Position numbers and translations under genes: made by a program. The notes below the pieces were generated by a model that was not told the origin of the DNA, ran no database searches, and saw only the letters and a list, made by a program, of their open reading frames with translations. A DNA stretch of 64,000 nt from Candidatus Dojkabacteria bacterium (lineage in GTDB: Bacteria; Patescibacteriota; Dojkabacteria; B142; OLB20): contig DAOMOX010000001.1 of assembly GCA_035444565.1 (NCBI GenBank), positions 450,335-514,334 of the forward strand, read 5' to 3'. Of this stretch, positions 4,315 to 61,500 are shown in pieces; position 1 is the first letter of the stretch, and each line of letters opens with the position of its first letter.

Positions 4315-5748
4315 ATGAAAAAAAATAAAAACGCTAAAACAATTTATGTGGAAGGAATGCATTGTGCATCATGCGAGTTACTCATCGAAAAAACACTTGA
4401 AGAATATCCGGGTGTCAAACAAGTTGATGCTTCATTGGAAAAGGGTCAGGTGAAAATCGTATCCGACAAAAGTGATTCTGTAGATATTGAAAAACTAAAT
4501 AAGGAATTTAAAGAAGCTGGTTATAAATTCAGTAATAAGCAATTTCCCAAGGAAAGCTATAAGTTAATTGAATTGACTGATGCCGGGATCGAGATAAACA
4601 GAGATAAATTTTATGAATATTTAAAAATATTTGGAATTCTCGTCTTTGTGTTGGTTCTTGTTATGTTAATCAATAATTCCAATATTGGCAGATATGCAGG
4701 TGTGAATGTAAATTCATCTCTACCTGCATTCTTGGTCCTTGGTATTGTCGCTGGCTTATCTAGTTGCGCTGCTTTGGTTGGAGGATTATTACTGGTCATG
4801 ACTAAGCAATGGAATGATTTATACATTACTGACAAAACAAATAAACTCAAATTTCAACCTCATATCTTATTCCACACTGGACGGTTAGTAGGTTACTTCG
4901 TTTTTGGAGGACTATTGGGATTACTTGGCCAGGTAGTTTCAATAGGAAGTGGAACATCTTTTGCAATTGTCATCATTGCGGTTTCTGTCGTTATGTTGGT
5001 TCTGGCATTGCAAATGATCGGAGTCAAACAGTTGCAAAACCTTCAGGTAAAAACTCCAAAAGTAATTAGTAAATTTATTACAAACGAATCGAATTTTTCA
5101 GGGAAATATGCCCCATTTATTCTTGGTGCATTGACGTTTCTACTTCCATGCGGATTTACATTGATTGCACAAGCCGCTGCTCTAGCTTCTTCAGGGTTTC
5201 TCAAAGGTGGTTTGATTATGTTGCTATTTGCTATCGGAACATTACCAATATTAGGTGGGATTAGTTTGACTGGAGTTAAATTCAACACAAAGCCGAAACT
5301 CACCTCGATGTTTAATAAAACGGCAGGAATTTTAATTGTCGTTTTCGCGATTTATACAATAAACAGTCAACTAAATGTTCTAGGCTTGAAAAGCTTAAGC
5401 GATTTGGAACTCAGAAGTAATAATACCGCCACGGAAAAAGTTGATCAAGAAGTTTCCGACAATCCCGTGATTGATGAAAATGCACAGAAATTAATTATTG
5501 TTGCAGATGATTTTTCTTATATACCACAAGGCTCAATGACAATAGAAGCCGATAAACCAACAGTGTTAGCGGTAAACAATAAAGGTGTACAAGGTTGTGG
5601 AAGATTTATGGCAGCCAGAGGATTAATCGATAATTTTGTAGAGTTGGACGATGGTTGGAACTATGTTGAATTAACTCCAAAGAAAGGCGTTTATAAACTG
5701 ACATGTACCATGGGCATGGTACGTCCTGTGACAATCACGGTTATTTAA
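4315..5748 (+). CDS. HMA-domain membrane protein (DsbD_2/CcdA-like thiol membrane domain), putative copper handling/transfer protein
   Basis: An N-terminal HMA domain (GMHCASCE = GMxCxxC) is followed by a 6-8 TM domain with two conserved membrane Cys (SSCAAL, LLPCGF) and a ~100-aa soluble C-terminal domain. It lies between csoR and copA. Confidence 0.55.
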   Translation: MKKNKNAKTIYVEGMHCASCELLIEKTLEEYPGVKQVDASLEKGQVKIVSDKSDSVDIEKLNKEFKEAGYKFSNKQFPKESYKLIELTDAGIEINRDKFYEYLKIFGILVFVLVLVMLINNSNIGRYAGVNVNSSLPAFLVLGIVAGLSSCAALVGGLLLVMTKQWNDLYITDKTNKLKFQPHILFHTGRLVGYFVFGGLLGLLGQVVSIGSGTSFAIVIIAVSVVMLVLALQMIGVKQLQNLQVKTPKVISKFITNESNFSGKYAPFILGALTFLLPCGFTLIAQAAALASSGFLKGGLIMLLFAIGTLPILGGISLTGVKFNTKPKLTSMFNKTAGILIVVFAIYTINSQLNVLGLKSLSDLELRSNNTATEKVDQEVSDNPVIDENAQKLIIVADDFSYIPQGSMTIEADKPTVLAVNNKGVQGCGRFMAARGLIDNFVELDDGWNYVELTPKKGVYKLTCTMGMVRPVTITVI

Positions 5749-5767
5749 TTATTAACAACTCATTAGA

Positions 5768-8194
5768 ATGAAAAAAACATTTGATGTTATTGGCGTACAT
5801 TGTGCTTCATGCAAATCTCTGATTGAAAGAAATGTTAACAAGCTGGATGGAATTAATATGGTGAATGTTAACTTTGCGGCAGCCAAAATGATGGTCGATT
5901 ATGATGAAAAGAAAGTCACTCTTGAAGAAATTGCTAAAGCGGTAGCGAGTGCTGGCACTTACAAATTGGTGAAGAATGATGACGAGGTTGTTCTTGCGAG
6001 CCCGGGAGAAATTAATAAATCTTCTCACATGAAAGAAATCGCAAAACCAGCACATGGTGAAACTGGCCACAATCACGCAGAAATGCTTAGAGCTGATGAG
6101 TATAAGTTGCTGAAGAAAAAAACAATACTTGTGGGCCTCGCGAATATTCCGTTCCTGTTCGTGATGATAAATATGCTTTTCAATAAAAGCGAAGAGATGA
6201 TGAGCTATCTAGGAATGATTAAACTAGAAAATTTTGGAATGTCTTTGAATCTTGATTGGGTTGTACAATTTCTCATTGCAACATTCATACTTTTCTGGGG
6301 AGGGAGTCAGTTTTTCAAGAGTGCGTGGACTGCATTGAAAAATAAAACAGCTAACATGGATACGCTTATCGCTCTGGGTACGTTCGTGGCATGGTTGTTC
6401 TCAGCGGTTGTGACATTTATTCCTCAAATATTCACAGATATCAAGGCAGAACCATTCTATGAGGCAGTAGGTTTTATAATATTTTTTGTGTTGTTGGGAA
6501 GGTTACTCGAAGCAAAAGCAAAAGGCAGCGCAAATCAGGCTGTTAAGAAATTAATGGAAATCCAAGCAAAAGATGCCTCAGTTATTCGTGATGGAGTAGA
6601 GGTGAAGGTTCCTATTAATGAAGTTGTAATTGGAGATATAGTAGTCGTAAGACCAGGAGAGAAGATTCCAGTTGATGGGGTTATTACCCATGGCACTAGT
6701 ACGATTGACGAATCTATGGTCACTGGAGAATCCATGCCGGTGGAGAAGTCTACAGGAGACAGTGTAATTGGTGCAACCATAAATAAATCTTCTAGCTTTC
6801 AATTTCGAGCGGAAAAAGTGGGCAAAGATACTTTACTCTCTCAAATCATTAAATTAGTTGAGGATGCCCAAATGAGTTCAGCTCCGATTCAGAAATTGGC
6901 AGACAAAATTTCTGCAATTTTCGTACCGATGATAGTAGTTATTTCAATTATGGTGGCCATATTTTGGTTGTTAATTGCACCGGAGTTGGGAATAGTTGGA
7001 GACATCTCTAGTGTTCAGTTAGCCATATATATCTTCGCAACAATTTTAATAATTGCTTGTCCATGTGCTTTGGGATTAGCTACACCAATCGCGGTGATGG
7101 TTGCTACCGGAAAAGCTGCAACCAAAGGAATATTAATCAAAGACGCAGAGGCATTCGAACTAGCATCCAAAGTCGACACAATTGTTTTTGATAAAACTGG
7201 TACTCTTACAAAAGGTGAGGTTGAAGTTGTCGAAATTGTTATAGTAGAGAATTTTAAAAACAAAAACAATCTACTGGATAGTTTGAGAATGGATGAATGG
7301 AACGAAGATACTTTGATCACGTTATCTGCGGCACTGGAATATAATTCGGAGCATCCCTTATCCGAAGCCATAGTAAAATTTGCCAATGATAAGAAATTAG
7401 ATTTCGCTAAAATCAAAATCGACTCATTTGAAAATCATGAAGGCAAAGGGGTAGCAGGAATTATGAAAGGGAAAGAAATTGTTATAGGAAACGAAAAGTT
7501 AATGGATAAATTTAAAATTGACTCTATAAAAGATGCGAATTCAGATTTAAAGGATAAGTTGGAGAAGTACAGAAATGAAGGCAAAACTATCGTTTCGATC
7601 GCTTATGGCAAGGAAATTATTGGATATTTTGCACTAGCAGATGCATTGAAGCCTGAAGCGAAACAGTTAATCAGCCAAATAAAAGAGAGAGGAATTCGAG
7701 TAATAATGCTATCTGGCGACAATGAACAAACTGCTAAGGCGATTGCAGAAAAGTTAGGAATTGATGATGTAATTGCGAACGTTTTGCCACACGAGAAGTC
7801 TGAAGTAATACAGAGACTGAAAAATGAAGAAGACGGTAAGATAATCGCTATGGTTGGTGATGGGATTAATGATGCTCCTGCACTTACTTTGGCAGATGTA
7901 GGCATCTCTATGGGTACTGGCACAGATATTGCTATTGAATCAGGGGATATCGTGATTGTCGGAGGAAAAATCGAAAAAGTGCTCGAAGTCCTGGATATTT
8001 CGTCAAAAACACTCAAGATTATCAGGGAAAATCTAATCTGGGCATTTGGATACAATATTATTGCCATTCCGATCGCAGGTGGATTGTTATATCCATTTAT
8101 AGGGCTTTTACTTTCTCCAGTAATCGCTAGCGTTGCTATGGCTTTCAGTTCTATCTCTGTTGTGTTAAACAGTTTAAGATTGAGGTCCGCATAG
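5768..8194 (+). CDS. copA: copper-translocating P1B-type ATPase
   Basis: N-terminal HMA (GVHCASCKS), a His-rich linker, the TM CPC motif ([13 protein letters not shown]), DKTGTLT phosphorylation site, [10 protein letters not shown] hinge and 8 TM helices. Confidence 0.95.
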
Positions 8195-12104: not shown

Positions 12105-12665
12105 TCAATTAATTGCTTCTTTCAAATTTTGGAGCTTGTTCTCGAATAAATCTTTGGCTAATGCAATAAGTGCGAAAATCATTGGTGCAAAAACTATATT
12201 TCCATACAATTGGTTCTTCAAGAATGGTAGGGCATTGATATAGCTGTTTATCAATCCTGAAATTGTGTCTGGATACATTGCTGTGGTGATAACAACACCG
12301 AAATTTGTCCAAAGGTAGAAGATTAATACTGATAATAATGATCCCCCAAGTCCTGCCAAAGCAGGGTATGTTTCCCCTTCTTGTTTGTTAATTTTTGAAA
12401 GTGCGGCCCCAATAAGTGGTGTTAACAAGAATGCGCTCCATGTGAAGATAAAAATTGAGGTGTTCCCGATAACCGCATCAGAAAGTACCATTATCACTAA
12501 AGGTACTATCATCGCTAATTTTTTGTTGTTCATAAAATACCCAGCGCCTAAGGAGGCGATTGTCACGAATTCGACATTTGGACCAATCGTAAAAATTGTA
12601 CGAGTGAGGAATCCTAATGCGATAAAACTGAGAACTAATACCTTGTCGTTATTTGTTATTTTCAT
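12105..12665 (-). CDS. ECF-transporter S-component-like membrane protein (candidate cobalamin-specific CbrT-like permease)
   Basis: 186 aa with 5-6 TM, similar in size and topology to ECF substrate-capture proteins. It is co-transcribed downstream of the DUF4430 lipoprotein and a cobalamin riboswitch. Confidence 0.4.
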   Translation of the reverse strand: MKITNNDKVLVLSFIALGFLTRTIFTIGPNVEFVTIASLGAGYFMNNKKLAMIVPLVIMVLSDAVIGNTSIFIFTWSAFLLTPLIGAALSKINKQEGETYPALAGLGGSLLSVLIFYLWTNFGVVITTAMYPDTISGLINSYINALPFLKNQLYGNIVFAPMIFALIALAKDLFENKLQNLKEAIN

Positions 12666-12684
12666 TTTGAAATATTATTTAATA

Positions 12685-13155
12685 TTAGTTAATTGTGTCT
12701 AATTCAAAGGAAACTTTATCGTCTGCTTTGGGTAAGTACTGAGAAATTCCGACCTGACTTAGTTCTCCGTTAATTTTGAATGACCAGAATTTATTATCTG
12801 CGGAAGGATTGTATCCGTTAATCGAAGTGATGAAAAATGCAGTTTCACCATCCATTTCAAATGAGTCAAACTCAATTTTTAAATTTTCGTTCTCATAGAT
12901 GACTTTATTTAAGATTTCATATAGATTCTCACCCTCAGTAAACTCAGCCTCAGTAACAATACTCTGGCCGTTCTGGTCTACGACTGTAATTTCGGTTTTC
13001 TGCATTACTTGTGTGACTTCTTCCTCTTGTTGGGTTTCTTCAGAATTGTTTATTACTTCTTTTGCCTTATCAAAATACGTACAACCTGTAAGTGTGACTA
13101 CAGAAAGTAATAAAATAACTGCTAAGGGGAGTTTTTTAGATAATGTGTCGCGCAT
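12685..13155 (-). CDS. DUF4430-domain lipoprotein (BtuG/transcobalamin-like corrinoid-binding beta-grasp protein)
   Basis: Lipobox LLSVVTLTGC. The C-terminal block FITSINGYNPSADNKFWSFKINGELSQVGISQYLPKADDKVSFEL matches the DUF4430 W.y.vNG......s.y.lkdGD.i.f motif. It sits immediately downstream of the riboswitch. Confidence 0.6.
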   Translation of the reverse strand: MRDTLSKKLPLAVILLLSVVTLTGCTYFDKAKEVINNSEETQQEEEVTQVMQKTEITVVDQNGQSIVTEAEFTEGENLYEILNKVIYENENLKIEFDSFEMDGETAFFITSINGYNPSADNKFWSFKINGELSQVGISQYLPKADDKVSFELDTIN

Positions 13156-13165
13156 TTAAATGCTG

Positions 13166-13345
13166 TAAAAAATAAAAATTCTCCGAGTAGGAGACTTTTT
13201 AAGATTCCTGCTCGGGATTGTGGTTCTTACCAGGCTCGGACTTTTCAGTAAAGAACTGAATTACCGTAGCGGCACTGTGCAGGATTTTCACCTGACTTCA
13301 CCGATAAGAATTTTAGTCTAGCAAACCCGAGCGAAGATAGTCAAA
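13166..13345 (-). ncRNA. cobalamin (AdoCbl-variant type) riboswitch with a terminator expression platform
   Basis: The minus-strand RNA reads ..GCUCGGGUUUG..GGUGAAGUCAGGUGAAAAUCCUGCACAGUGCCGCUACGGUAAUUCAGUucuuuACUGAAAAGUCCGAGCCUGGUAAGAACCACAAUCCCGAGC.. This matches the core GGGAAn3GGUGAGAAUCC..GCAGCCCCCGCUACUGU and the B12-box region GUCCCGAGCCAGGAGACC. P1 is GCUCGGG/CCCGAGC. It is followed by a UCUCC-uacuc-GGAGA hairpin and a U-run. Confidence 0.65.
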
Positions 13346-13418: not shown

Positions 13419-13679
13419 CTACTCTATATTACCTTGCTCTAAAGCGTTGCCGGTATAACCTATTGCTCCAGCTGTTATCAGGAGTCCTGCGGCAGAAGCC
13501 GCTATAGGGACGGGATTGTCAGTGAATATTGTAAGTGCTAAATTGCCGACTCCAATTAAAAGAGCCACGCCCAGTTCTTTTGTAAGACGAAGTCTTCTTT
13601 CTTTGCATATTTTCATGGCTTCGACACATCCAATGATGAGACCAGAAGCTGCGCCAACAATTTCAGGTAAATTCTCCAT
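13419..13679 (-). CDS. small membrane protein, hypothetical
   Basis: 86 aa with 2-3 Gly/Ala-rich helices. Confidence 0.3.
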   Translation of the reverse strand: MENLPEIVGAASGLIIGCVEAMKICKERRLRLTKELGVALLIGVGNLALTIFTDNPVPIAASAAGLLITAGAIGYTGNALEQGNIE

Positions 13680-13689
13680 TATAATAATT

Positions 13690-14013
13690 TTAATTATTTA
13701 AAACCTCCCAAGCAATAATCCCACCTTTCAAGTCATAGACTTCTTTGAAACCAATTGTTTTCATAATGTCTAAGACTGCTTTCGTACGACTGCCAGTTCT
13801 GCAGTATATGAAATAAGGGTGGTTTTTGTCTAGGTTTTCGAGTTGTTTTTCAAAATCCACTGAATAAAAATCAAAATTGATAGATCCATGTAGATGTTGT
13901 TCAGCGTATTCGCCTGGAGTCCGGATATCAATAAGAGTCCCTTTACGGTCTTCGTGCATCGCTAGAAATGTCTTTGGATCAAGCGAAGAAAAGTTAAGTG
14001 ATGAAGTAATCAT
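13690..14013 (-). CDS. single-domain rhodanese (sulfurtransferase)
   Basis: Active-site loop YFIYCRTGSRTK (CX5R) and the ...GGIIAWEV C-terminus. Confidence 0.8.
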   Translation of the reverse strand: MITSSLNFSSLDPKTFLAMHEDRKGTLIDIRTPGEYAEQHLHGSINFDFYSVDFEKQLENLDKNHPYFIYCRTGSRTKAVLDIMKTIGFKEVYDLKGGIIAWEVLNN

Positions 14014-14041
14014 AATAAAAAATTTATTTAATTAATTGAAA

Positions 14042-14965
14042 TTATTGACTGTTTACTTGTTGGCTTTGTGAGTTACTGGCGTTACGTTTCTTTAACCTCA
14101 GAAGCCAGCCATAGGTGTGGACTGAGACTACTGCGATAATAGTTACCCAGAAAGTTGTTTGCATAGAAGTCGGTTGCAGTACGAAATAACCTTTCCATGC
14201 GTGAAAGATTACTGAGAGATAGGCGAGATAGACGAGATAATGAAGCTGTTTCCAGGCATTTACTCTCAGAAATAACTTTGCAGGGAGACTCCATGGCGCT
14301 ATCAATACCCAAAAGATTACAAAACCAGTGAAGATTACATAATGTAAGGTTTCGAGATTTAATATTCCTAGAGCACTCATTCCCACTGTATATGCAATGT
14401 AGAATAAGAGTAATCCCGTATGAATCAAGTTGTAATATTTTGTTGGGAGTTTTGTCTGGAAGTAATTTGTCGAAGTAAATGCTAATGCTGATAATATAAT
14501 TAATGCAGTAGTGCCAAAGTAATTCGCACTAACCGAATATATTAATTCAGGATTAAATTCATAATATTTCGAAATTACAAAATTTGCATGAATAAAAGCC
14601 AGAAGGAAAGTTGCAACGCCTACATGTCTTCTATGTCTGAATAACGGTGCAAAACGTTTGTTTATTCGTGTCAATGGTCCGATAACAAGTGTGATTTGTA
14701 AAAATGTAAACGCTGTGAATGCTGTAGCTTGAACTATATGTCTGGTGTCATCGAGATTGGGATACATTAATTGATGAAGGAGAACATTGCCTGCAACTAA
14801 GAGAAGAAGAATCATATTAACCCAATTTCTAGCTAATAGGCTTAGTAAGAGTAGTGCACCTAAAAGTATCCAGAAAACAACCAGAGTCGGAAAGAGGATT
14901 GGAGCAAGTAAAGCATAGAAGAGGCAAAGTGTAATTGTTGTGTAAACCTGGATTTTCTTATTCAT
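14042..14965 (-). CDS. polytopic membrane protein, possibly with a ferric-reductase-like (MsrQ-like) heme-binding TM domain
   Basis: About 9 TM. The HRRHVGVATFLLAFIHANFV His pair is spaced like the bis-heme ligands of Ferric_reduct domains. This is a weak call. Confidence 0.3.
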   Translation of the reverse strand: MNKKIQVYTTITLCLFYALLAPILFPTLVVFWILLGALLLLSLLARNWVNMILLLLVAGNVLLHQLMYPNLDDTRHIVQATAFTAFTFLQITLVIGPLTRINKRFAPLFRHRRHVGVATFLLAFIHANFVISKYYEFNPELIYSVSANYFGTTALIILSALAFTSTNYFQTKLPTKYYNLIHTGLLLFYIAYTVGMSALGILNLETLHYVIFTGFVIFWVLIAPWSLPAKLFLRVNAWKQLHYLVYLAYLSVIFHAWKGYFVLQPTSMQTTFWVTIIAVVSVHTYGWLLRLKKRNASNSQSQQVNSQ

Positions 14966-27617: not shown

Positions 27618-29207
27618 TTGCTAGAACCTTGGACAGAAGAACAACTACATGACGTATACGAAAACGGTGTAACCGCATTTGGACTTCTCATGCTTATTGA
27701 TAATTTAGAAATTAATCAATCCCCCGGTTGGTTAAATCTTGGACAAAACAAGGAGGGAAAGGATTTCGAGTTTCAAAGACTAATTAGAAATACTGCACAA
27801 AAATTAGCATGTTTAGAGATACGTTACCCAAACTTAAACGACAGTGTAGACGATGATCTTTATAATCATATTATTGGAAACCCTACTCGTTCATTGATAC
27901 AATGGATGCAATTTTATTTGTTAGGATTAGGACATGGAGAAGGGATTATATCAACGGATAAATTAGTAATAATTTGTTCAGAGACATGCGTGTTGGATTT
28001 TATTGAAAGAAATTTAGAGAACATACCACGCACGGAACTATCTTTAGAGGAAACAATCGGAGATATTTATGAGGGTCCGAAAACATGCTCAAGATATTTA
28101 TATATTTCTCCTACTTGTGGCGAAGATTCTTTCTCCTCAATTAAAGAAATATACCTAGAATACAATCAAACTTTTTCAGAATTTACAGAATTCCTTTCCA
28201 AATATCCCTTTTTATTTGAAATGAATATGGATACTTATATCAATCCGACAACTATTAGCCTCCAAGATACTCCGATTCTTTCAAAACTTAAACAGCTAGG
28301 AAAAAATTTAGACGGAATAGAGTGGAATGATGAGTTCAAAAATGATTTCGCTAATAGTTTTGTATTTTCTTTCTTTTTGATCTTGGGAGAGGAAGATTTC
28401 CAGGATCTTTATGACGAAAGAATACTAAGGTATTGGGGTGATAGATTCTGGGTTCAAGACGCAACTATTCCTCGTGCACTTGTGGTAACTCCTAATGGTT
28501 TGAAAAATCTGGCTAATGATCCAAAGAAAAGCAAATCAAATGCAAGTCATGAATATTTCCATTTTTTCTTAAATAGATATTTTTCATCTGAATCGGATCC
28601 TATGGGCTCTTCTCAATATATACTCCCAAAATGGTTAATAGAAGGTTTGTGCAATGTAATGTTTTTAACCGAGAGGGGCAGGACAGATGATGGCTTTAGG
28701 GAAGCACAAATAAATAAATTGATGAATGGAGAAGAAGAATTATTAACAGCTCAAGATATTATGAATTCAGATGATGTTAATTACCTTCATTATAGTGTCT
28801 TTACTCATTTCATATTCAAGGTACTAAATTCAGCGATTGATGGGGAAAAAGAAATCAAGTCTATTCCAATACGTTCTTACGGAATAACAAATAAAGTATT
28901 AAAAGCAATGAAAGATGCATATGGAAAATTGAAGATAATTTATCCACCAGCGCCTTCTAATCTTCATAATCTAGTCGCAATCGAGATTATTGGTTCAATA
29001 TTAAAAGATTCACGCAGTTTCAATAAATTTAACTTCAATAATTTGATGAAAACTTTTAACTCAAATAGAGAAATATTCTATGCAGACTATTTTTTCCCTG
29101 AGTGGGAGACAGACGATGAACAGTATAGAGAAATGATAAGATTCTTCCGAAAAATAAAAGAAATACAAATTAGTAAAGAAACTAACAGCAATGAAAATAA
29201 TAAATAA
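27618..29207 (+). CDS. HExxH zinc-metallopeptidase-like protein (MA-clan, Peptidase_MA_2-like), paralog A
   Basis: SHEYFHFF (HExxH), and about 30 aa later WLIEGLCNV (the EGxA third-ligand helix). There is no signal peptide. Confidence 0.45.
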   Translation: MLEPWTEEQLHDVYENGVTAFGLLMLIDNLEINQSPGWLNLGQNKEGKDFEFQRLIRNTAQKLACLEIRYPNLNDSVDDDLYNHIIGNPTRSLIQWMQFYLLGLGHGEGIISTDKLVIICSETCVLDFIERNLENIPRTELSLEETIGDIYEGPKTCSRYLYISPTCGEDSFSSIKEIYLEYNQTFSEFTEFLSKYPFLFEMNMDTYINPTTISLQDTPILSKLKQLGKNLDGIEWNDEFKNDFANSFVFSFFLILGEEDFQDLYDERILRYWGDRFWVQDATIPRALVVTPNGLKNLANDPKKSKSNASHEYFHFFLNRYFSSESDPMGSSQYILPKWLIEGLCNVMFLTERGRTDDGFREAQINKLMNGEEELLTAQDIMNSDDVNYLHYSVFTHFIFKVLNSAIDGEKEIKSIPIRSYGITNKVLKAMKDAYGKLKIIYPPAPSNLHNLVAIEIIGSILKDSRSFNKFNFNNLMKTFNSNREIFYADYFFPEWETDDEQYREMIRFFRKIKEIQISKETNSNENNK

Positions 29208-29223
29208 ATAGATATTAATTATT

Positions 29224-30624
29224 ATGTTTGGGGAGGATTTAAATAATATTGGTAAAATGTTAGTTGGTTTTGCAGGAAGCCGAAGAGACTCTGCATGGAA
29301 TAAAATGAAGGAAGAAAGTTATGAGCGTGCTGGAGGTAGGATTACAGGTGTAGAACTACAAGAGTCTATAATTGCTTCAATTGAAAGACTGGTCCAAATA
29401 TCAAAAAAATATGAGGAATTTTCTCTCGATGATAATAACGGAAAGGAATATTTTGTTTTTGGTAACTCTGCCAGAACAATTTATGAATGGTTCACCTTTT
29501 ATATAGATAATTCAGTAAATGAATCAAGTGGAATATCTACAGTAATGTGGATCAATCTTATTGCGGAGACTGATGTTCTAGTGTTTCTAGAAGATAAATG
29601 GAGTAAAGGTCATATTTCTCCTTCTCCCATTAATGATGGGTTTTCATTGTATCAATATATCTCGTCAACTATAAATGAAGATGTTTCTTCAAACTTTGTA
29701 AATGTATATAACGAAGAACACGATAATATCATTCATTTCTTAGGGAGTAATAGATTGATTTATAAGCCATTGACTAGGGAATACCAAAGCACAAGGAATC
29801 CTGGCATACAAGATTTAAATTTCCCGTATTTTATAGACGAGAAAACAATATTTAAAGATTCTATGAAATACTCATTCTTTGTTATGCTTGATGATAAGGA
29901 TTTCGGGGAGCTGTACTCGGACGTTGTTGTTAAATACAAATCAGATAGATTCTGGGTTCTTGATTGTCCTTCAGTTAGATCTGTTGTAATTACTCCAAAT
30001 GGTGTCAACAATCTTATTCAGGATCCGCGACTCCTTGATTCGAATGCAAAACACGAAGCATTACATGCATATACTGATGCTCGTCTAGAAACTAGGCAAG
30101 ATTTAATGAGGTCGGGTCAATATTTATTGCCCAGATGGACTATAGAGGGTCTAGCAAATTTTGTGTCGGGTAGAGGGCGCGAAGAAGATGGATTCAGAGA
30201 GCGACAACTTCGGACCTTTAAAAAATTTGGGTTGAAAGAATTTGATGAAATAGCTAGTAATGATGATGAATATTATGAGTATTACACACTGTTAATGTAT
30301 TTCTTGTTATCCGCTATGACGTCTTGCTTCCATAGAGAGAATCAAATTAAATTAATTAAAAAAGATGATGATAGTAGAATATTAGAGGCTTTAATACTAC
30401 TTAGACTCTCCACTTTTAAAACTGAATTGCCAGCTAACGGTGACTTTAGAAATGAATTTATTAAAGATATTGTGATGAGCGTCTTTGCAGGATCTGAACA
30501 GGATTTTCGAAATTTGAGCTTTGAAAATTTGAAAGTATTGTTTAATGAGAATAAAGAGAAAATATTCAAGGGGTATTATGAAGACAACGAAGTAGTAATT
30601 GATTTAAATAAAGTTTCCAACTGA
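29224..30624 (+). CDS. HExxH zinc-metallopeptidase-like protein, paralog B
   Basis: KHEALHAY (HExxH) and WTIEGLANFV. It shares collinear blocks with paralog A (DRFWV.D...R..V.TPNG..NL..DP; Y.LP.W.IEGL; DGFRE.Q). Confidence 0.45.
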   Translation: MFGEDLNNIGKMLVGFAGSRRDSAWNKMKEESYERAGGRITGVELQESIIASIERLVQISKKYEEFSLDDNNGKEYFVFGNSARTIYEWFTFYIDNSVNESSGISTVMWINLIAETDVLVFLEDKWSKGHISPSPINDGFSLYQYISSTINEDVSSNFVNVYNEEHDNIIHFLGSNRLIYKPLTREYQSTRNPGIQDLNFPYFIDEKTIFKDSMKYSFFVMLDDKDFGELYSDVVVKYKSDRFWVLDCPSVRSVVITPNGVNNLIQDPRLLDSNAKHEALHAYTDARLETRQDLMRSGQYLLPRWTIEGLANFVSGRGREEDGFRERQLRTFKKFGLKEFDEIASNDDEYYEYYTLLMYFLLSAMTSCFHRENQIKLIKKDDDSRILEALILLRLSTFKTELPANGDFRNEFIKDIVMSVFAGSEQDFRNLSFENLKVLFNENKEKIFKGYYEDNEVVIDLNKVSN

Positions 30625-32869: not shown

Positions 32870-34642
32870 TTATTTTGCAATTGATAGATTGTTGATTATC
32901 TCTTTGCATGTTTTGGTGGCTTTCTCAGGAGTAGTTTTTACTTCACAAGAGATTGTCAGAAACCTAGGACCCTCAGCTGTTTCGAATTTGTAAGAAGTGT
33001 CCACGCAAGGTGATTGTATGGGGTTGCCCAAAAAGTCTTTACAGTCACTTTTCTTGTAATTTCTTGAGTCCGTGAAATAGTAAATAAACTTAGCAGCATA
33101 TTCATGCATCAAAATATTTCCTAGGTATTCGGTATCAATCTCCTCAGGTATCCAATTGGAATAACTAAAGCCATTTTCATACCATTCATTTATTGAGAAT
33201 ACCATATCTTCTGATTCAATTTTAATACTAGCTCGTTCTATATTACTATTGTTCTCGTTTTGTAATCCTTCTGGTAACGTTCCTTCTACAATTATTGCTT
33301 CTCTTCGACTTCCTCCATACTCAGAATCATATACTATTCCGGAGTATGAGTTTTCTGTCGGAATTGTTAAGCGATGTGTTGGCGTAGGCATTACATTTGT
33401 ATCAGTAGGTTGTACAGGTATTGTAGGATTTAAGGATTTCAATCTAAAATAATTTATGTCTTGTATCCATAATACTTCAGCTACTTCAGTCTTTTGTGTG
33501 AAACCACTTACTTCAAGCTCTTTTCCTAATAGAAACTTTCCAATAATAGTAGGTTTTCTTGTTATCTTATCGAAAAGAAAATTACCATCTAAGATATATT
33601 CTTTATTTTCTGTTGAAAAAATTGGGGTGATTATATCCTCACCTGGATTTCTGAGTTCGAATTTCCCATTTCCCAAGTTAATAATCGAAGAAGAAGGGGA
33701 CGTGTTTTTATTAATTGGTTCTAATTGATCTATATATTGACTAAATTCGAAGATGTTATTTGCTTCATCTATAGAAATAATTTCAAACTCATTATAGGTT
33801 TCGATTTGGCTATCTTGTAATGAACTAAACGTGCTAGACGATTCGTTGGATATTGGCAAGTAAGTTTCTTTATCTATGGTAATAACTGCTTCATAGATAG
33901 TCTCGACACGCTTTGTGGCTCCATTAGCCTCTCTTGTGAGTGCTATTCCTGGATAAGTGAAGGTAATTACAAAGACTTCTCGATTGTTAATTTTGTCTTC
34001 TTTTAACTTGTACTGCGAAGATTCTCCTTGTAATAAGTAGTCATAAAAACCCACCAATGATTTTAGCTGTGATCTATGCTCAATCGAAATCATTTCTTCC
34101 GAAAGGTTTCTCCAGTTTGATGTACTACCGTAACTATAACTGTATTCATTTATCCCGTCACTGAAGGTCGCAAATTTTTGAGGGCTGAAATCACGATAAG
34201 ACTTCCCCGGTACCATTTCTGTCGGTAGTAATGTATCTGATTTGGAAACATCATAACGGATTAGATATTTCTCGTCTTGATTAGAAACATAACCCTCTAC
34301 GTCAAAATTGTCATATTCCTCAAAGTCGGTGACAGTTTTGATATTGTAAGAATAATGAAGGATTCCCGGTTTCGCTAACATTTCTTTGAGAGTTTGTTGT
34401 GTTTTTTGTATTACTTCCATTGCGGATACAGGTTTCACCACTTTTCTTTGTTGTTCTTCCGGAAGGAAGAAGACTCCAATTCCAACAACAAAAATTACAA
34501 AAAGGGTTAGTGCAAACTTATAGAATATCCCAAGTCCAGGAGATTTTTCTGGCTTGATTTTTTGTAATACTATTTTGTCGAGTCTGGTTTCTTCATTTTT
34601 ATCTAATTTATTATTGTTCATGAATTGATTTAGATTTTCCAT
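32870..34642 (-). CDS. putative single-pass anti-sigma factor / envelope sensor, with the C-terminal 4-Cys domain
   Basis: It lies immediately downstream of the ECF sigma gene (10-nt gap). It has a short cytoplasmic N-terminus, one TM, and a ~520-aa extracytoplasmic region ending ..CKDFLGNPIQSPCVD...ISCEVKTTPEKATKTCKEIINNL. Confidence 0.45.
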   Translation of the reverse strand: MENLNQFMNNNKLDKNEETRLDKIVLQKIKPEKSPGLGIFYKFALTLFVIFVVGIGVFFLPEEQQRKVVKPVSAMEVIQKTQQTLKEMLAKPGILHYSYNIKTVTDFEEYDNFDVEGYVSNQDEKYLIRYDVSKSDTLLPTEMVPGKSYRDFSPQKFATFSDGINEYSYSYGSTSNWRNLSEEMISIEHRSQLKSLVGFYDYLLQGESSQYKLKEDKINNREVFVITFTYPGIALTREANGATKRVETIYEAVITIDKETYLPISNESSSTFSSLQDSQIETYNEFEIISIDEANNIFEFSQYIDQLEPINKNTSPSSSIINLGNGKFELRNPGEDIITPIFSTENKEYILDGNFLFDKITRKPTIIGKFLLGKELEVSGFTQKTEVAEVLWIQDINYFRLKSLNPTIPVQPTDTNVMPTPTHRLTIPTENSYSGIVYDSEYGGSRREAIIVEGTLPEGLQNENNSNIERASIKIESEDMVFSINEWYENGFSYSNWIPEEIDTEYLGNILMHEYAAKFIYYFTDSRNYKKSDCKDFLGNPIQSPCVDTSYKFETAEGPRFLTISCEVKTTPEKATKTCKEIINNLSIAK

Positions 34643-44211: not shown

Positions 44212-44991
44212 ATGAAACTAACGGATTCCCCACAAACGTATCGTAAGCTTAAATTGTACAATCTCGTTATGGGATTTCTACATCTTTTGCAAGGTGTTTT
44301 GATGGTCGTTGTCAGTAATGACACATCAGCGAAGTTAACTACTGAGTTTTTGAAGTTTGATACACAGGCGATGCAGGTATTGCAAGAGAAAGAGGTCCTC
44401 TTTGAATTGCCATTAGGTTATTCAGTAGCAGTTTTCCTGTTTATGTCCGCTTTGGCTCATTTCATTATTGGCACAGTATATTTCCCCAAATATGTTGAAA
44501 ATCTTAAAAAAGGTGCTAATTACGCTAGATGGATTGAATATGCATTTAGTTCGTCATGGATGATTGTGATTATCGGGATTTTGGTTGGAATGTTTGATGC
44601 CCCAAGTTTGATTTTACTGTTCTTCTTGAACATGATGATGATTTTGTTTGGATATGTTATGGAATTGCATAATCAAACGACATCCAAGACAGATTGGACA
44701 TCATTCATCTATGGTTGTATCGCAGGTGCAGTTCCTTGGGTAGTGATGGGTTGGTATTTCTATGGGGCAGTTCAAAACACAAATGAAGTCGCAGTTGTTC
44801 CAAACTTTGTTTACGGAATTTTCATCTCGCTACTAGTCTTCTTCAATGTTTTCGCTATCAATATGATCCTGCAATACAAAAGAGTTGGAAGATGGAAAAA
44901 TTATCTTTTTGGAGAGGTAGTCTATATTGCTCTAAGTTTAGTAGCTAAATCATTACTAGCTTGGCAAGTATGGAGTGGGACACTTCGCTAG
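44212..44991 (+). CDS. heliorhodopsin (7-TM microbial rhodopsin with inverted topology)
   Basis: 259 aa with 7 TM. Near-collinear motif identity with the type heliorhodopsin 48C12 as recalled: LYNLVMGFLHLLQG, RWIEYAFSSSWMIV, FIYGCIAGAVPW, VPNFVYGIFISLLVFFN, and QYKRVGRWKNYLFGEVVYIALSLVAKSLLAWQVWSGTL with the TM7 Schiff-base Lys (SLVAKS). Confidence 0.85.
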   Translation: MKLTDSPQTYRKLKLYNLVMGFLHLLQGVLMVVVSNDTSAKLTTEFLKFDTQAMQVLQEKEVLFELPLGYSVAVFLFMSALAHFIIGTVYFPKYVENLKKGANYARWIEYAFSSSWMIVIIGILVGMFDAPSLILLFFLNMMMILFGYVMELHNQTTSKTDWTSFIYGCIAGAVPWVVMGWYFYGAVQNTNEVAVVPNFVYGIFISLLVFFNVFAINMILQYKRVGRWKNYLFGEVVYIALSLVAKSLLAWQVWSGTLR

Positions 44992-57187: not shown

Positions 57188-58474
57188 ATGAAAAATACAA
57201 TCGAGCCTAACAAAATTAAGGCACTTATCACTTTTGTAGTCGTACTTAGTGTGATTACCTTTTCTTCAATCGGGTATTTAATTGGTAGGGGAAGTGGGGA
57301 TGGAATTACAACAGGGCTTACAGAAATTGAAGATTCCTCAGCAGCTGTTTACAATAATGTGCAAAAAGGGAATGTAAAATATACAAAGCCACAGTATATT
57401 CCAGTCAGGGAGGCAATGCCTTTATATTTTAAGTATACAGGTGTAAATAATACGAATGACTTGCCAGATTGGAAAATAAATTTCTGCGGTGTTGTCAAAA
57501 GATATCCGGATACTCAGGAAGTAGCTACTTCAAGAAGATTTAATACTGTTGGCTCGTGTAAGATTACTGTAAATGTAACAGTTAATGGAAAAACCGAAAC
57601 AGTAGTGTTCTATCAGAAAGTTTTAAAGATAAAAAGTACTGTTGATACCGAACTTCTTACAAATGGCGATGCATATCTTGGAGAAGATTATACTGTGGGA
57701 ATATCTTTGGATGGAAAAGTAAATGCTGCGTATAAAGGCGTAGACTGGAATTGGTCAGCGACAGGGGATTGTGAAGCGGGTTGGAGCCCATCGATTGGGG
57801 TCGATGCCGTATTAGTACTTAAATTGCTAAATCCTGGTGTTTGTACGGTCAAAGTGGTGGGTTATGTATACTATGACACATACGCAATTAAAGCAGTAGA
57901 GTCTGCACAAATCAATATTTTACCTGCGAGAGTAGTACCAACAGATGAATTGGAAGTAACAGAAATGCCAACTCCAGTGCCTTCTGTTGTAATTCCTACC
58001 CCTGCTCCTTCTATAGTAGGAGTATCCCCAACACCAGCAAGTAATCTTGCAGCAATGAGTTTGTTCCCCTCAACTTTTAAAACATCACCTAATGGTGAGT
58101 TTAAAGTTGCTATTATGGCACAACCTCCTTCCACCAACATCACAGGATATGTTACCAGTTATCAGATTCGCCTCAAGGTCCAAGGCGCATCAATTGTTGA
58201 GGGTTCATTTGTAGAAGCCGGTGGTAATTTACTAACAATTGGTACGTGTAATACATCTAATAGTGCAATCACTACAAATGAAGTATGTGTAGACGTTTCA
58301 ACTATGTCTGGATACATTCCAAATAATCAAGTATTGGGTAGTTTCACAATCAAGGCACAAACGACAAACCCAATAGTAGTTTCAACGATTCCAGGTAATG
58401 CTTATCTTTCAAATGGGCAATTGCAGTTGGCTGAAAATATTAAACTTGCGAGTTACACAGTTTCTCTCCCTTAA
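57188..58474 (+). CDS. secreted/membrane-anchored protein with W-x-W / paired-Cys repeats and a Pro/Ser/Thr linker
   Basis: N-terminal TM. DWKINFCGVV..GSCKITVNV and VDWNWSATGDCEAGW..GVCTVKVVG are related to the repeats in 45695..46393. There is a PTPVPSVVIPTPAPS linker and a C-terminal beta domain. Confidence 0.45.
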   Translation: MKNTIEPNKIKALITFVVVLSVITFSSIGYLIGRGSGDGITTGLTEIEDSSAAVYNNVQKGNVKYTKPQYIPVREAMPLYFKYTGVNNTNDLPDWKINFCGVVKRYPDTQEVATSRRFNTVGSCKITVNVTVNGKTETVVFYQKVLKIKSTVDTELLTNGDAYLGEDYTVGISLDGKVNAAYKGVDWNWSATGDCEAGWSPSIGVDAVLVLKLLNPGVCTVKVVGYVYYDTYAIKAVESAQINILPARVVPTDELEVTEMPTPVPSVVIPTPAPSIVGVSPTPASNLAAMSLFPSTFKTSPNGEFKVAIMAQPPSTNITGYVTSYQIRLKVQGASIVEGSFVEAGGNLLTIGTCNTSNSAITTNEVCVDVSTMSGYIPNNQVLGSFTIKAQTTNPIVVSTIPGNAYLSNGQLQLAENIKLASYTVSLP

Positions 58475-58511: not shown

Positions 58512-61500
58512 TTAGTCAGGCCACCTACTATACATAATTGTTTCCGCTTCTCCTTCTCTTTTCGGTAAAGACTGCCAGATTTTCTCAGTTAGAAATGGAA
58601 TAAAAGGATGTAACAATTTCAGATATGTTTCTAGAGAATATAGTATCAACCATTGGGCTGTAAATCTTGATTTTGACTCCTCTTCTGATGTGTTGATTGG
58701 GTTTCCTTCACGATCTTTTGTGTAAAGTCTAGTTTTGATTTTTTCCAGATAAATATCAGCGAAATAATGCCAGAATGATTCATAAAGTTCGTCAGCGGCG
58801 ATTCCAAATTTAAATTCGTTCAATCTCCTGGTAGTTTCTTCAATTAGTTTTTCAACATGATCCAACATTTCAGTATCATCTTGTGTGAACTCTAATTCGG
58901 ACCTGTCCGAATTAATCAATTTGTCAGCTTTATCTTCGATGTTAAAGAGTACAAACTTGGATGCATTCCAGATTTTATTGCAGAAGTTGCGGTTAGATGA
59001 TACTTTCTCTTCATAAAGACGATAATTTTGACCGGCTGAGTTACCTTTGACAAAGCTATATCTCAATGCATCTGTTCCATATTTTTGCATCATTTCGAAA
59101 GGATCGATACCATTACCTTTGGATTTGCTCATTTTAATTCCATTCTTATCAAGTACCAACCCATGTAGATACACGTCTTTGAAAGGAACAATTTGCTCGT
59201 CGGAAGTATTAGGGTTTAGCTTCTTCGCTCTATACGGATTGAGTAACATCATTCTGGTCACCCAGAATAATAAAATATCCCATCCAGTTTCCATAACTTG
59301 GGTAGGGTAGAATTGCTCAAAATCACCTTCCTTCACCATCAAAGTTAGATATGGCCATTGTCCAGATGAGAACCATGTATCAAGTACATCTTCGTCTTGA
59401 AGCCATTCTGATTTTATTAAGGAATAATTTCGAAGTTCCAGATTTTTTGGGTCATTTTCTCTAGATTGCTCAGGAGTTAAATTATTTAATTTTCTCTCGA
59501 ATATTCTAATTATGCCTGCATGTGTCACAACCAATGGGTTTTTATAGCCTGAGGTTTTCAACCAAATGATAAACTCTTCAATTCTCTTTTCGACTGCTTC
59601 TATTTTCTCGCCTTTTTCAAGCTCTGGTTGGAAATCCATATTATTTTTTGAAGCCTCTTCAGGATGTTTGTTAGTAAATTCTTCCCAAGTAAGCCCTTCT
59701 AAGTTGCCGAAATTCCTTTCTTTGAGTAAATCGTTCTCGATGATTTTCAATCCCAATTTCTCATTAACAATTTCAGCAGTTTGACGTGCTCTTTTTAATG
59801 GAGAGGTGATAATCACATCATATTTAGAATTGAGTTTTTCAATTGCGTTTTGAGCTTGTTTTTGACCGATGTCATTTAAATCGATATCAGTGAATCCATG
59901 GAATTTACCAAGTTTGTTGTATTCTGTCTCTCCATGTCTCAGGACTGAAATATTGATTTGTCCATTTAGATCAGAGTTTGAGTTGTTAGGATTATCATGT
60001 CCTACATGTATTAATCCCTCATAATCTTCGGGATTATTTATAATTTTGTTTCCAATTTTCTCTTTTACTTCACCTGTTTGGGTGATGTATTGCGTATGTT
60101 CGCCTTTATACCAGACAGGAACTCGATAACCCCACCATAGTTGTCTCGTGATGCACCAATCTTCCTGACTTTCCATCCATTGTAGATATGTTTTCTTTTT
60201 GCCCTCAGGCATGATTTCAGTTAATCCTTCTTCAACTAATCTTTTTGCTTCTCTTTTTAATGGTTCTGTATCCACAAACCATTGATAGGAGATAAGCGGT
60301 TCTATAGGGTGTTTGCATCTCTCACAAATTCTAATTCTGTTTTCATAATTTTCGTCTAAGTATACTAGCATTCCATTTGCTTTCATGTCTTCTAACATCA
60401 CTTTTCGTGCTTCCTTTACATTCATACCTTCATATTTGCCGGCTAGGTGATTCATTTTGCCATTGAAGTCTATGACCTGCTTCTCTGGGAAAGCTTCCTC
60501 TGGATGACGTTTGGCTATATCCCAATCTTCCGGGGAATGTGCGGGAGTGACTTTTACCATGCCAGTTCCGAAATTTTCATCGACAGCGTCATCGGCGATA
60601 ACATTTATTTTGGATGTGCCAAGTAAAGTTTTAACTTCAAATTCTTTTCCAACATACTCTTTAAATCTCTCATCGTCTGGGTCAACTGCAAGTGCTGTGT
60701 CTCCGAACTTGGTCTCCGGCCTGACTGTGCCTAGAACGAAACCATTAGTATAGAATTTGTCGTCAGGGAAGTCTTTGAAGTTTATAAAGTGAATACCCGC
60801 ATCTCTTTTTTTTGATTCAGCAACTTTCCAAAGCTTTGTTAATTCTTGATTTAAATCTCCCTCAAAATCAGGGTTAGAAAGTATTAAGCTGAATTTTTTA
60901 TTTAGCCTCATCATAATTGCATACGGTTTGCCGACTATTACATCTCCTTTAGTTAACTTTTCGTTATCATAACCAATACAATGTACAACCATTTCTCCAG
61001 TTTCAATTTGGTATCCGCCATCAATTGCGCCTATTGCAAATGGATAAATTTCTTTACCGTCCGGGCTTGATGACCTCTCAAAAATCCATTTAACTTCTTC
61101 CATTTGTGAGAAGTCATTTTTAATTCTTATCGCATCTTTTTCGGGATCTACAAATCCGTATTTAAAGTAGAAGAAAGGGGAAACTGAGTCTTTGAACTCC
61201 GTGTCGATATCTGCAAGAGCAGACTGACATCTGGGGCACCAGTTGATTATCCTTTTATCGCGATATACGAGCTTGTCCTCATACATTAACTCGAATGCCT
61301 TTAGAACTTCGTCTACAATCTTGGGTTCTAGAGTAAATAATTCTCTATCGAAATCTGCAGATAAACCAATATTTTTTTCCTGCCTACGAGCATTTTCAGA
61401 GTTTTTGATACAAAAAGCATAACAACGTTTATAGAATTCTTCTCTGCCTAATGCTTTCTTTGATAATCCTTCTTTTTCGAGTTCTTTCTCAAAAACTACT

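Follow-up and report, generated by a model that had tools for sequence, protein, structure and literature searches.

The 64,000-nucleotide stretch of contig DAOMOX010000001.1 analysed here (the window) comes from a Candidatus Dojkabacteria genome (Patescibacteria, candidate phyla radiation, CPR), and it probably carries a B12-repressed two-gene corrinoid-scavenging operon on its minus strand. The leader RNA at 13206-13310 is, as judged from its sequence and covariation, a class-II cobalamin riboswitch for which ligand binding and regulation are predicted, and it precedes genes for a DUF4430 lipoprotein and a DUF6580 membrane protein. Direct support for this reading comes from the identity and structure of the RNA, from the conservation of RNA and gene order in relatives and from the folds of both proteins. 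A preliminary description of the locus had proposed a cobalamin riboswitch and terminator over a DUF4430 lipoprotein and an S-component-like permease, with corrinoid uptake as the plausible function, and this central proposal stands.

The leader is situated in a minus-strand gap of 263 nucleotides (nt) between a small open reading frame (ORF) ending at 13419 and the ATG at 13155, and this gap holds all the leader strings that had been quoted; the cobalamin-riboswitch core, the B12-box-like stretch, the hairpin with its U-run and both ORFs are all present on the minus strand as described. The DUF6580 ORF begins 19 nt past the stop codon of the DUF4430 ORF, so that the two genes can be regarded as one operon, and since the next gene beyond DUF6580, of the RDD family, lies convergently on the plus strand, the transcription unit is limited to these two genes. 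The G+C content of the window is 35%. A metagenome-assembled genome (MAG) of Candidatus Dojkabacteria encodes a protein with 100% identity to the DUF4430 protein, and the nearest homologs of the DUF6580 protein are likewise from Dojkabacteria. The features of the locus are the following (aa, amino acids).

13315-13344, minus strand: predicted promoter, with -35 TTGACT at 13344-13339, an 18-nt spacer and an extended -10 TGcTAGACT at 13323-13315
13224-13310, minus strand: predicted class-II cobalamin aptamer (RF01482, 45.6 bits; lineage model, 91.5 bits; covariation)
13310-13301 with 13233-13224, minus strand: helix P1, UUCUUAUCGG with CUGGUAAGAA, covarying
13296-13279, minus strand: hairpin P4, with the T-loop-like loop L4, UGAAAAU
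13276-13268, minus strand: P5 with its loop L5, UGCCG at 13274-13270
13266-13264 with 13239-13237, minus strand: P6, with a short hairpin extension at 13260-13244
13243-13233, minus strand: B12-box-like stretch within the aptamer
13218-13223, minus strand: linker J1/13, CCACAA, 6 nt leading from P1 to P13, read from the alignments
13206-13217, minus strand: hairpin P13, stem UCC/GGA (3 bp), loop L13 CGAGCA at 13214-13209
13167-13194, minus strand: predicted intrinsic terminator, UCUCC-UACUC-GGAGA at 13194-13180 with the U-run UUUUUAUUUUUU at 13178-13167 and a flanking A-run, also returned by a terminator scan
12685-13155, minus strand: DUF4430 lipoprotein ORF, 156 aa (ORF listing and Pfam)
12105-12665, minus strand: DUF6580 membrane protein ORF, 186 aa (ORF listing and Pfam)

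At Rfam gathering thresholds the search of the whole window reported tRNA only and no riboswitch. When the leader was searched on its own, RF01482 (AdoCbl, cobalamin clan CL00101) matched 13322-13201 over the full length of the model (1-149) with 45.6 bits and an E-value of 2.1e-7 for 361 nt, or about 4e-5 when scaled to the whole window, and two more families of the cobalamin clan matched with lower scores than RF01482. The core GGUGAAGUCAGGUGAAAAUCCUGCACAGUGCCGCUACGGUAA is found at 13302-13261 and the B12-box-like AAGUCCGAGCCUGGUAAGAACC at 13243-13222 of the minus strand. For comparison, 80 species-level loci encoding relatives of the DUF6580 protein were used (L001 and so on), several of which carry RF01689 or RF01482 matches above the cut-off, 500-700 nt upstream of the DUF6580 gene. 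A lineage covariance model built from 10 leaders (the window and nine relatives) scored the window leader at 91.5 bits (E 8e-17) and detected 48 instances in 44 of the 80 loci, nearly all on the gene strand and most of them just upstream of DUF4430. It superseded a strict regular expression for the core, which had recovered 5 loci only. No paper was found that joins Patescibacteria with cobalamin riboswitches.

The alignment of these 48 sequences forms standard pairs in 88% of its cells, compared with 36-49% when the partners are slid, and its covariation score of 0.569 (shuffled mean, 0.154) was reached in none of 500 shuffles. Compensatory changes occur in every helix, including P1, P4, P6 and P13; the middle pair of P6, for example, is GC in 25, CG in 10, UA in 9 and AU in 2 sequences. 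Because the alignment was fitted to its own model the pairing is somewhat inflated; even so, given the slid controls and the variety of pair types, the structure can be regarded as secure. Covariation backs the four-way junction P1/P4/P5/P6 (with the P3/P1 stem), and thus the leader has both the significant covariance-model matches and the fold that the preliminary description had made the touchstones of its riboswitch.

The published class-II scheme (PMC7367189, Fig. 1) distinguishes Cbl-IIa, in which J1/3 is bulged and P6 bears just a loop, from Cbl-IIb, with a short paired or mismatched J1/3, a short P6 hairpin, no P2 arm and no P7-P11. The window aptamer is without P2 arm and without P7-P11 extension, its P1-P3 helix is continuous and fully paired over 10 bp, and its P6 bears a 5-bp hairpin; it shows neither the bulged J1/3 nor the bare P6 loop of Cbl-IIa and has the architecture of Cbl-IIb. 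The subclass is therefore probably Cbl-IIb rather than Cbl-IIa (AdoCbl-variant), because J1/3 is paired and P6 ends in a short hairpin, in agreement with RF01482, which scored above RF01689 on this leader, as the best family. The earlier assignment to the AdoCbl-variant type (RF01689) was right as to class II and the missing peripheral extension and differs from ours in the subclass and the best family. The relatives L010, L012, L016, L017 and L024 do fit Cbl-IIa, and many of the orthologous leaders of other species show its bare P6 loop, with matches to RF01689. Both families, RF01482 'AdoCbl' (Cbl-IIb) and RF01689 'AdoCbl-II/variant' (Cbl-IIa, e.g., env8HyCbl, PDB 4FRN), share the P3-P6 junction core, and the T-loop-like L4 UGAAAAU, the conserved L5, the B12-box, the absence of P2 and P7-P11, the short J1/13 and the hairpin P13 are common to them and the window, where the P13 loop may likewise kiss L5 with an unpaired purine. 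The functional hallmark of Cbl-IIb is selectivity for adenosylcobalamin (AdoCbl); the RNA of the window may prefer AdoCbl or else methyl- or hydroxocobalamin (MeCbl/HyCbl).

The boundaries of the RNA differ in one respect from those first proposed, in which the leader was closed by a P1 of GCUCGGG/CCCGAGC. Both strings exist (at 13332-13326 and 13216-13210 of the minus strand), and their pairing is seen in the single-sequence minimum free energy (MFE) fold, but the label was mistaken, the covarying P1 being UUCUUAUCGG/CUGGUAAGAA. When the window is aligned with ten relatives, CCCGAGCAGGA varies little or not at all and GCUCGGG occurs in the window only, whereas CCCGAGC is invariant across the aligned relatives and is part of the hairpin P13/L13. 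The 5' half of the rejected pairing lies inside the promoter spacer: GCUCGGG is located between the conserved -35 TTGACT and the extended -10, for which reason it is probably spacer and not transcribed. The promoter scan gave 9 of 12 matches, with the TG, and TTGACT and TG-TAGACT are kept in the three closest relatives (L001-L003) with a variable spacer between them; transcription would start near this predicted promoter. As a separate observation, the perfect 7-bp complementarity of GCUCGGG and CCCGAGC, unique to this genome, would sequester L13 if transcription began further upstream. Two other pairings were discarded: the UGCCG/CGGUA alternative of RNAalifold, dropped in favor of the Rfam P5/P6 (L016 has a compensatory CCG/CGG in P6), and GCAGGA with the 3' strand of P4 (UCCUGC), spotted by eye, which shows no covariation in L024, L006, L010 and L012.

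Class-II riboswitches regulate by means of a kissing loop that L5 and L13 form in a ligand-dependent manner, with the short J1/13 linker between them; this kissing loop always holds an unpaired nucleotide in the published examples, and the length of the linker, 7 nt in env8, matters for its formation. In the window, L13 without its middle A reads CGGCA, the exact complement of L5 UGCCG, so that five pairs (U13274:A13209, G13273:C13210, C13272:G13211, C13271:G13213 and G13270:C13214) could form with one bulged purine, A13212. These pairs hold in 95.7% of the cells of the alignment; L075 has a compensatory change of a pair (G-to-A in L5 with C-to-U in L13), and L007, L047 and L063 differ at the bulged L13 position only. 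L13 is conserved in about 44 of the 48 instances, and the P13 stem covaries (UCC/GGA, UUC/GAA, UCU/AGG, UUU/AAA, UUA/UAA), one of its positions being CG in 36 and UA in 9 sequences, with others in the remainder. Complementarity and precedent suggest that the L5-L13 kissing loop can form.

The short hairpin with U-run that had been noted ahead of the DUF4430 gene was found again as the terminator of the feature list. Its segment UCCUACUCGGAG (13192-13181, the 5' strand and loop) is complementary to the whole P13 segment UCCCGAGCAGGA, with a predicted duplex energy of -14.5 kcal/mol compared with -4.9 for shuffled sequences (z -4.9, 0 of 200). When folded from the predicted start, the MFE structure combines the aptamer P1 with the antiterminator, and the platform amounts to -15.1 kcal/mol in this state and to -10.8 kcal/mol for P13 plus terminator. 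Since the antiterminator is lower in energy, the default state would be read-through, and stabilization of P13 by the ligand would lead to termination. The complementarity of P13 and terminator recurs in relatives, for instance in L062 (-19.9, a perfect 10-11 bp). By its sequence and by analogy the platform thus appears to be a known antiterminator design working as an OFF switch. The repressing corrinoid riboswitch of Priestia megaterium metE (Taga laboratory, PMC10327014) is also transcriptional; its switching logic was shown by mutagenesis, whereas that of the window platform is modelled. Compared with the metE element, P13 of the window is minimal (3 bp and a 6-nt loop) and the aptamer is of class II, and nearly the whole of P13, not its 3' side alone, is complementary to the 5' strand and loop of the terminator.

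The product of the first gene belongs to DUF4430 (Pfam PF14478), as had been expected of 12685..13155; the match scores 53.6 bits, well above the gathering cut-off of 23.8, with an E-value of 3.1e-14. It is composed of a signal peptide with the lipobox LTGC (Cys25), a disordered linker (residues 26-49) and a transcobalamin-beta-like domain at about 50-156; lipobox and Cys25 are invariant in 13 homologs. The AlphaFold2 (AF2) model has a confidence score (pLDDT) above 90 over residues 50-156, which form a small alpha/beta domain. In the Foldseek search of the PDB this domain matched the transcobalamin beta-domain (5no0/5np4) with a template-modelling (TM) score of 0.80, a root-mean-square deviation (rmsd) of 2.6 Å, an E-value of about 1e-6 and a probability of 1.00, and all 19 PDB matches at E <= 0.001 were transcobalamin, intrinsic factor, haptocorrin or R. 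gnavus 3u7z. Sequence and profile searches of the PDB with this protein gave nothing meaningful. At the level of the predicted model the transcobalamin-beta-like fold of the DUF4430 domain is therefore confirmed. The isolated beta-domain of human transcobalamin has been solved both empty and with cyanocobalamin (PDB 5np4), and binding of B12 by the DUF4430 lipoprotein seems plausible from its modelled fold.

The beta-domains of transcobalamin, intrinsic factor and haptocorrin and R. gnavus RUMGNA_00854 (3u7z) have the same fold as the window protein (TM 0.80-0.88, rmsd 2.1-2.6 Å) and belong to the same Pfam family. Unlike transcobalamin, the window protein is lipid-anchored and has the beta-domain only, without the alpha/alpha-barrel, at an identity of about 15%. 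It had been likened to BtuG as well as to transcobalamin, and only the second likeness extends to the fold. BtuG, too, is a riboswitch-controlled surface lipoprotein that catches B12 for a membrane transporter, and the role proposed here is analogous; however, BtuG is a seven-bladed beta-propeller restricted to Bacteroidetes, its partner is the outer-membrane transporter BtuB, and it is unrelated to DUF4430. No propeller was among the Foldseek matches of the DUF4430 model in the PDB.

The second gene encodes a protein with six to seven helices whose sole Pfam match is PF20221 (DUF6580, E 1.6e-33), a family of 4,082 clusters at 50% identity (E <= 1e-3). Its AF2 model (pLDDT 90.5) is most similar, by Foldseek, to S-components of energy-coupling factor (ECF) transporters, namely FolT (7nnt_C, TM 0.64/0.69), PanT (6zg3_C) and one more S-component, with TM scores of 0.58-0.69 and probabilities of 0.98-1.00. 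NCBIfam had no match for the protein, and neither phmmer nor the family profile found a match among the PDB chains at E <= 10, CbrT and BtuM included. The description of this protein as a small, CbrT-like ECF S-component consequently holds for the modelled fold and fails for membership, since Pfam, NCBIfam and the PDB place it in no named S-component family. Transport by DUF6580 is suggested by the model, and its energization might come from a shared ECF module elsewhere or, as for BtuM, from none.

Two known B12 transporters can be compared with DUF6580. CbrT (ECF-CbrT of Lactobacillus delbrueckii, from the cluster nrdJ-cbrS-cbrT-pduO) is likewise a small membrane protein of the S-component fold for cobalamin import; it needs an ECF module, whereas none was seen near DUF6580 in the window or in 77 of the 80 loci, and no sequence relationship between the two is detectable. 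CbrS of the same cluster is presumably a DUF4430 protein. BtuM of Thiobacillus denitrificans, a protein of about 20 kDa with the S-component fold, transports B12 in organisms without an ECF module and is a possible model for a solitary DUF6580. It differs in binding cobalt via a cysteine, in occurring in proteobacteria with BtuB and no lipoprotein partner, and in having no sequence similarity to DUF6580.

The pairing of the two genes is widely conserved. With phmmer, a DUF4430 ORF was found immediately upstream of DUF6580 in 62 of the 80 loci, and a Pfam check of seven loci in which it had seemed to be missing revealed DUF4430 directly upstream and above the cut-off in six, which brings the count to at least 68 of 80; in L049 the upstream DUF4430 stays below the Pfam cut-off. 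The loci are almost all from Patescibacteria, together with a DPANN archaeon MAG and a Pirellulales MAG. A cobalamin riboswitch is detectable in about 45 of the 80 loci and precedes the genes on their own strand in about 41 of them; the element of L067, in the same position, is of class I (RF00174).

Taken together, these data are consistent with the following mechanism. A promoter at about 13344-13315 would drive a leader that folds into the class-II cobalamin aptamer. With cobalamin bound, L5 (UGCCG) would pair with L13 (CG-A-GCA, A bulged) and lock P13, the downstream hairpin and U-run would be free to form, and transcription would end ahead of the genes. Without B12, the P13 segment UCCCGAGCAGGA would pair instead with the terminator 5' strand and loop UCCUACUCGGAG, and this antiterminator, whose predicted energy is lower by about 4 kcal/mol than that of P13 plus terminator, would allow the operon to be read through. 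The lipoprotein, on the outer face of the cell membrane, might then capture a corrinoid with its transcobalamin-beta-like domain and hand it on to DUF6580, which by its S-component fold may carry it across the membrane.

Several observations weigh against this scheme. The 45.6 bits of the leader are below the curated RF01482 cut-off of 50, so that Rfam would not annotate it automatically, and about 35 of the 80 loci have no riboswitch at Rfam cut-offs or by the lineage model, which makes control by B12 common, not universal. The terminator stem has 5 bp only. The bases of the kissing loop are near-invariant, with L075 as the single compensatory example, and its support is for that reason not one of broad covariation. 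On the protein side, the Foldseek E-values against S-components are weak (0.16-0.55), and we restrict 'S-component-like' to a statement on the fold for this reason; the DUF6580 alignment has no conserved Cys or His for cobalt ligation as in BtuM, so that the chemistry of BtuM does not apply; and the literature contains no paper that mentions DUF6580. Finally, the AxxxA motif, which mediates EcfT docking from helix 1 in group II S-components, is not conserved in the first 45 residues (helix 1) of 20 family members, and no Walker A or ABC (ATP-binding cassette) signature motif is present in any frame of the 64-kb window.

The last two observations bear equally on the strongest of the rival explanations, in which riboswitch and uptake role are the same and DUF6580 is a conventional group II S-component that, like CbrT, works only when docked on a shared EcfA-EcfA'-EcfT module, with the genes for this module elsewhere in the genome. 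We give this explanation a substantial chance, though one short of even. In its favor, the closest structural matches of DUF6580 are S-components taken from ECF complexes; moreover, CbrT supports B12 uptake only together with its ECF module, and the genes of group II S-components are typically scattered away from that module. Besides the missing motifs, it is opposed by the rarity of a candidate ATPase near the genes (an ABC-ATPase-like ORF within 4 kb in 3 of the 80 loci only, all three on the opposite strand) and by the precedent of BtuM and solitary BioY, S-component-like proteins that work without a module. The other form of the importer reading, that DUF6580 is an unrecognized B12 importer family with the S-component fold and no ECF ATPase, fed by a membrane-anchored single-domain relative of transcobalamin, is one we put forward tentatively, as possible but doubtful.

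It is also conceivable, though unlikely, that the B12 riboswitch is genuine and the two proteins are no importers of B12: they might bind or store corrinoids as a pair, act as receptor or sensor, or transport a related compound such as cobinamide, another tetrapyrrole or a lower ligand, and be merely co-regulated by B12. The binding and transport roles of the pair are predictions, the riboswitches of relatives also control unrelated proteins annotated without function, and the nearest structure from a bacterium, R. gnavus 3u7z, bears no other label in its deposition than 'putative metal binding protein'. Corrinoid import is nevertheless favored by the specificity of the fold match, which is to the cobalamin-binding domain of transcobalamin, intrinsic factor and haptocorrin, by the conservation of the pair in at least 68 of the 80 loci, and by the standard pattern of uptake genes that a B12-repressed surface-anchored binder with a vitamin-transporter fold represents.

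Control might alternatively be translational, with the hairpin after P13 acting on ribosome access, similarly to the env8 type with its ribosome-binding site in L13; for the window we consider this quite improbable. The relatives are in fact split downstream of P13. In one group the AUG follows 3-9 nt past the AGGA of P13, an env8-like translational design seen in L030, L058, L063, L060, L080 and L075; in the second, to which the window belongs, P13 is followed by a hairpin and U-run, the hairpin 5' strand and loop being complementary to P13. In L053, L049, L040, L026 and L028 the 3' strand of the hairpin, GGAGG, stands directly before the AUG. Both regulatory modes thus exist in the family. 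In the window, however, about 50 nt separate the AUG at 13155 from the AGGA of P13 and about 25 nt separate it from the hairpin's GGAGA, L13 has no ribosome-binding site such as that of env8, an intrinsic terminator taking its place, and downstream of the hairpin there is a U-rich run of 12 nt, as is usual for such terminators. A chance or decayed resemblance without regulatory function, as might be suspected from a Rfam score under the gathering cut-off and an empty report at default thresholds, is effectively refuted by the local E-value of 2e-7, the 91.5 bits of the lineage model, compensatory changes in every helix across dozens of species, the same position of the RNA in dozens of species and the conserved expression platform.

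The loci of the relatives offer further observations beyond the two-gene module. Transcobalamin has a two-domain architecture (alpha/alpha and beta). In L023 (1819-4483) the order is riboswitch, DUF4430, an alpha/alpha-toroid protein of 444 aa (Prenyltrans/SQHop_cyclase-like) and DUF6580, and the toroid together with DUF4430 may represent a split version of the transcobalamin arrangement. In Gottesmanbacteria-type relatives the riboswitch first drives a protein of 700-880 aa without Pfam match, followed by DUF4430 and DUF6580 (L026:1149-3572, L028:920-3061, L035:996-3506, L031:1047-3452; also L053:832-3465 and L029:978-3464). Four of these proteins are mutually related; no NCBIfam match (L026, L053), no PDB match (L026) and no homolog in the window were found, and they make up a B12-regulated family outside the known ones. 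In four loci (L051:4723-5745, L058:4735-5721, L063:4719-5567, L060:3164-4066) the DUF6580 gene is directly followed by another cobalamin riboswitch, which controls proteins of about 300 aa with a zinc-ribbon-like CxxC...CxxC motif at their end; searches of Pfam, NCBIfam and the PDB gave no match for these, and the window encodes no homolog of them. Two Woesebacteria MAGs, L054 (6322-6542) and L059 (5467-5701), and L061 (5218-5510), whose MAG bears the label 'uncultured Gammaproteobacteria', have group I introns (RF00028, above cut-off) some 1-2 kb past the module. In L015 (4540-4729) a T-box leader (RF00230, 95.8 bits) is located immediately downstream of the DUF6580 gene.

Within the window, the upstream neighbors on the same strand (13419-14965, minus strand) have no evident tie to the B12 module: an 86-aa hydrophobic ORF without family assignment, a rhodanese-domain protein (13690-14013) and a ferric-reductase-like membrane protein (14042-14965). 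Elsewhere, a heliorhodopsin gene at 44212-44991 (plus strand) matches Pfam PF18761 over its full length (E 7.7e-95). The 1094-aa class-I aminoacyl-tRNA synthetase at 58512-61796 (minus strand), which resembles isoleucyl-tRNA synthetase, is an unusual fusion with a His_Phos_1 domain (residues 618-793, E 1e-42) inserted between its catalytic and anticodon-binding domains. An HMA-DsbD_2 fusion protein (4315-5748, plus strand) and the following 808-aa ORF (5768-8194, plus strand), which by eye resembles a heavy-metal P-type ATPase, form a putative metal-handling pair spanning 4315-8194. Four large ORFs (428-590 aa), in 27618-30624 (plus strand), 32870-34642 (minus strand) and 57188-58474 (plus strand), have no Pfam match at E <= 1e-4.

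The RNA itself is ordinary in kind and adds little that is new, except that curated Rfam thresholds miss the riboswitches of this lineage and that the same unit of aptamer and P13 is wired to terminators or to ribosome-binding sites in sister lineages. Its value is that, with a specificity that is known, it draws attention to a conserved module of two genes whose membrane component, DUF6580, is absent from the literature. In Lactobacillales the combination of a lipoprotein and an S-component has been annotated for B12 before, from genome data; the new element is the membrane partner in Patescibacteria, DUF6580, which is tightly paired with a single-domain relative of transcobalamin.

CPR bacteria are believed to depend on cofactors scavenged from hosts or neighbors, and DUF6580 is a concrete candidate for a B12 importer in a group where the acquisition of cofactors is poorly understood. 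According to the BtuM paper, a large share of the prokaryotes that depend on B12 have no known transporter for it in the inner membrane. If the importer role holds, it would provide a function for two 'domains of unknown function'. If DUF6580 is indeed a solitary importer, the module would constitute a B12 uptake system reduced to two proteins, as would suit auxotrophic cells of ultra-small size, in a family of about 4,000 clusters at 50% identity that is concentrated in Patescibacteria and reaches a DPANN archaeon MAG, and the beta-domain of the animal B12 carriers would have a bacterial counterpart as the substrate-capture protein of a transporter.

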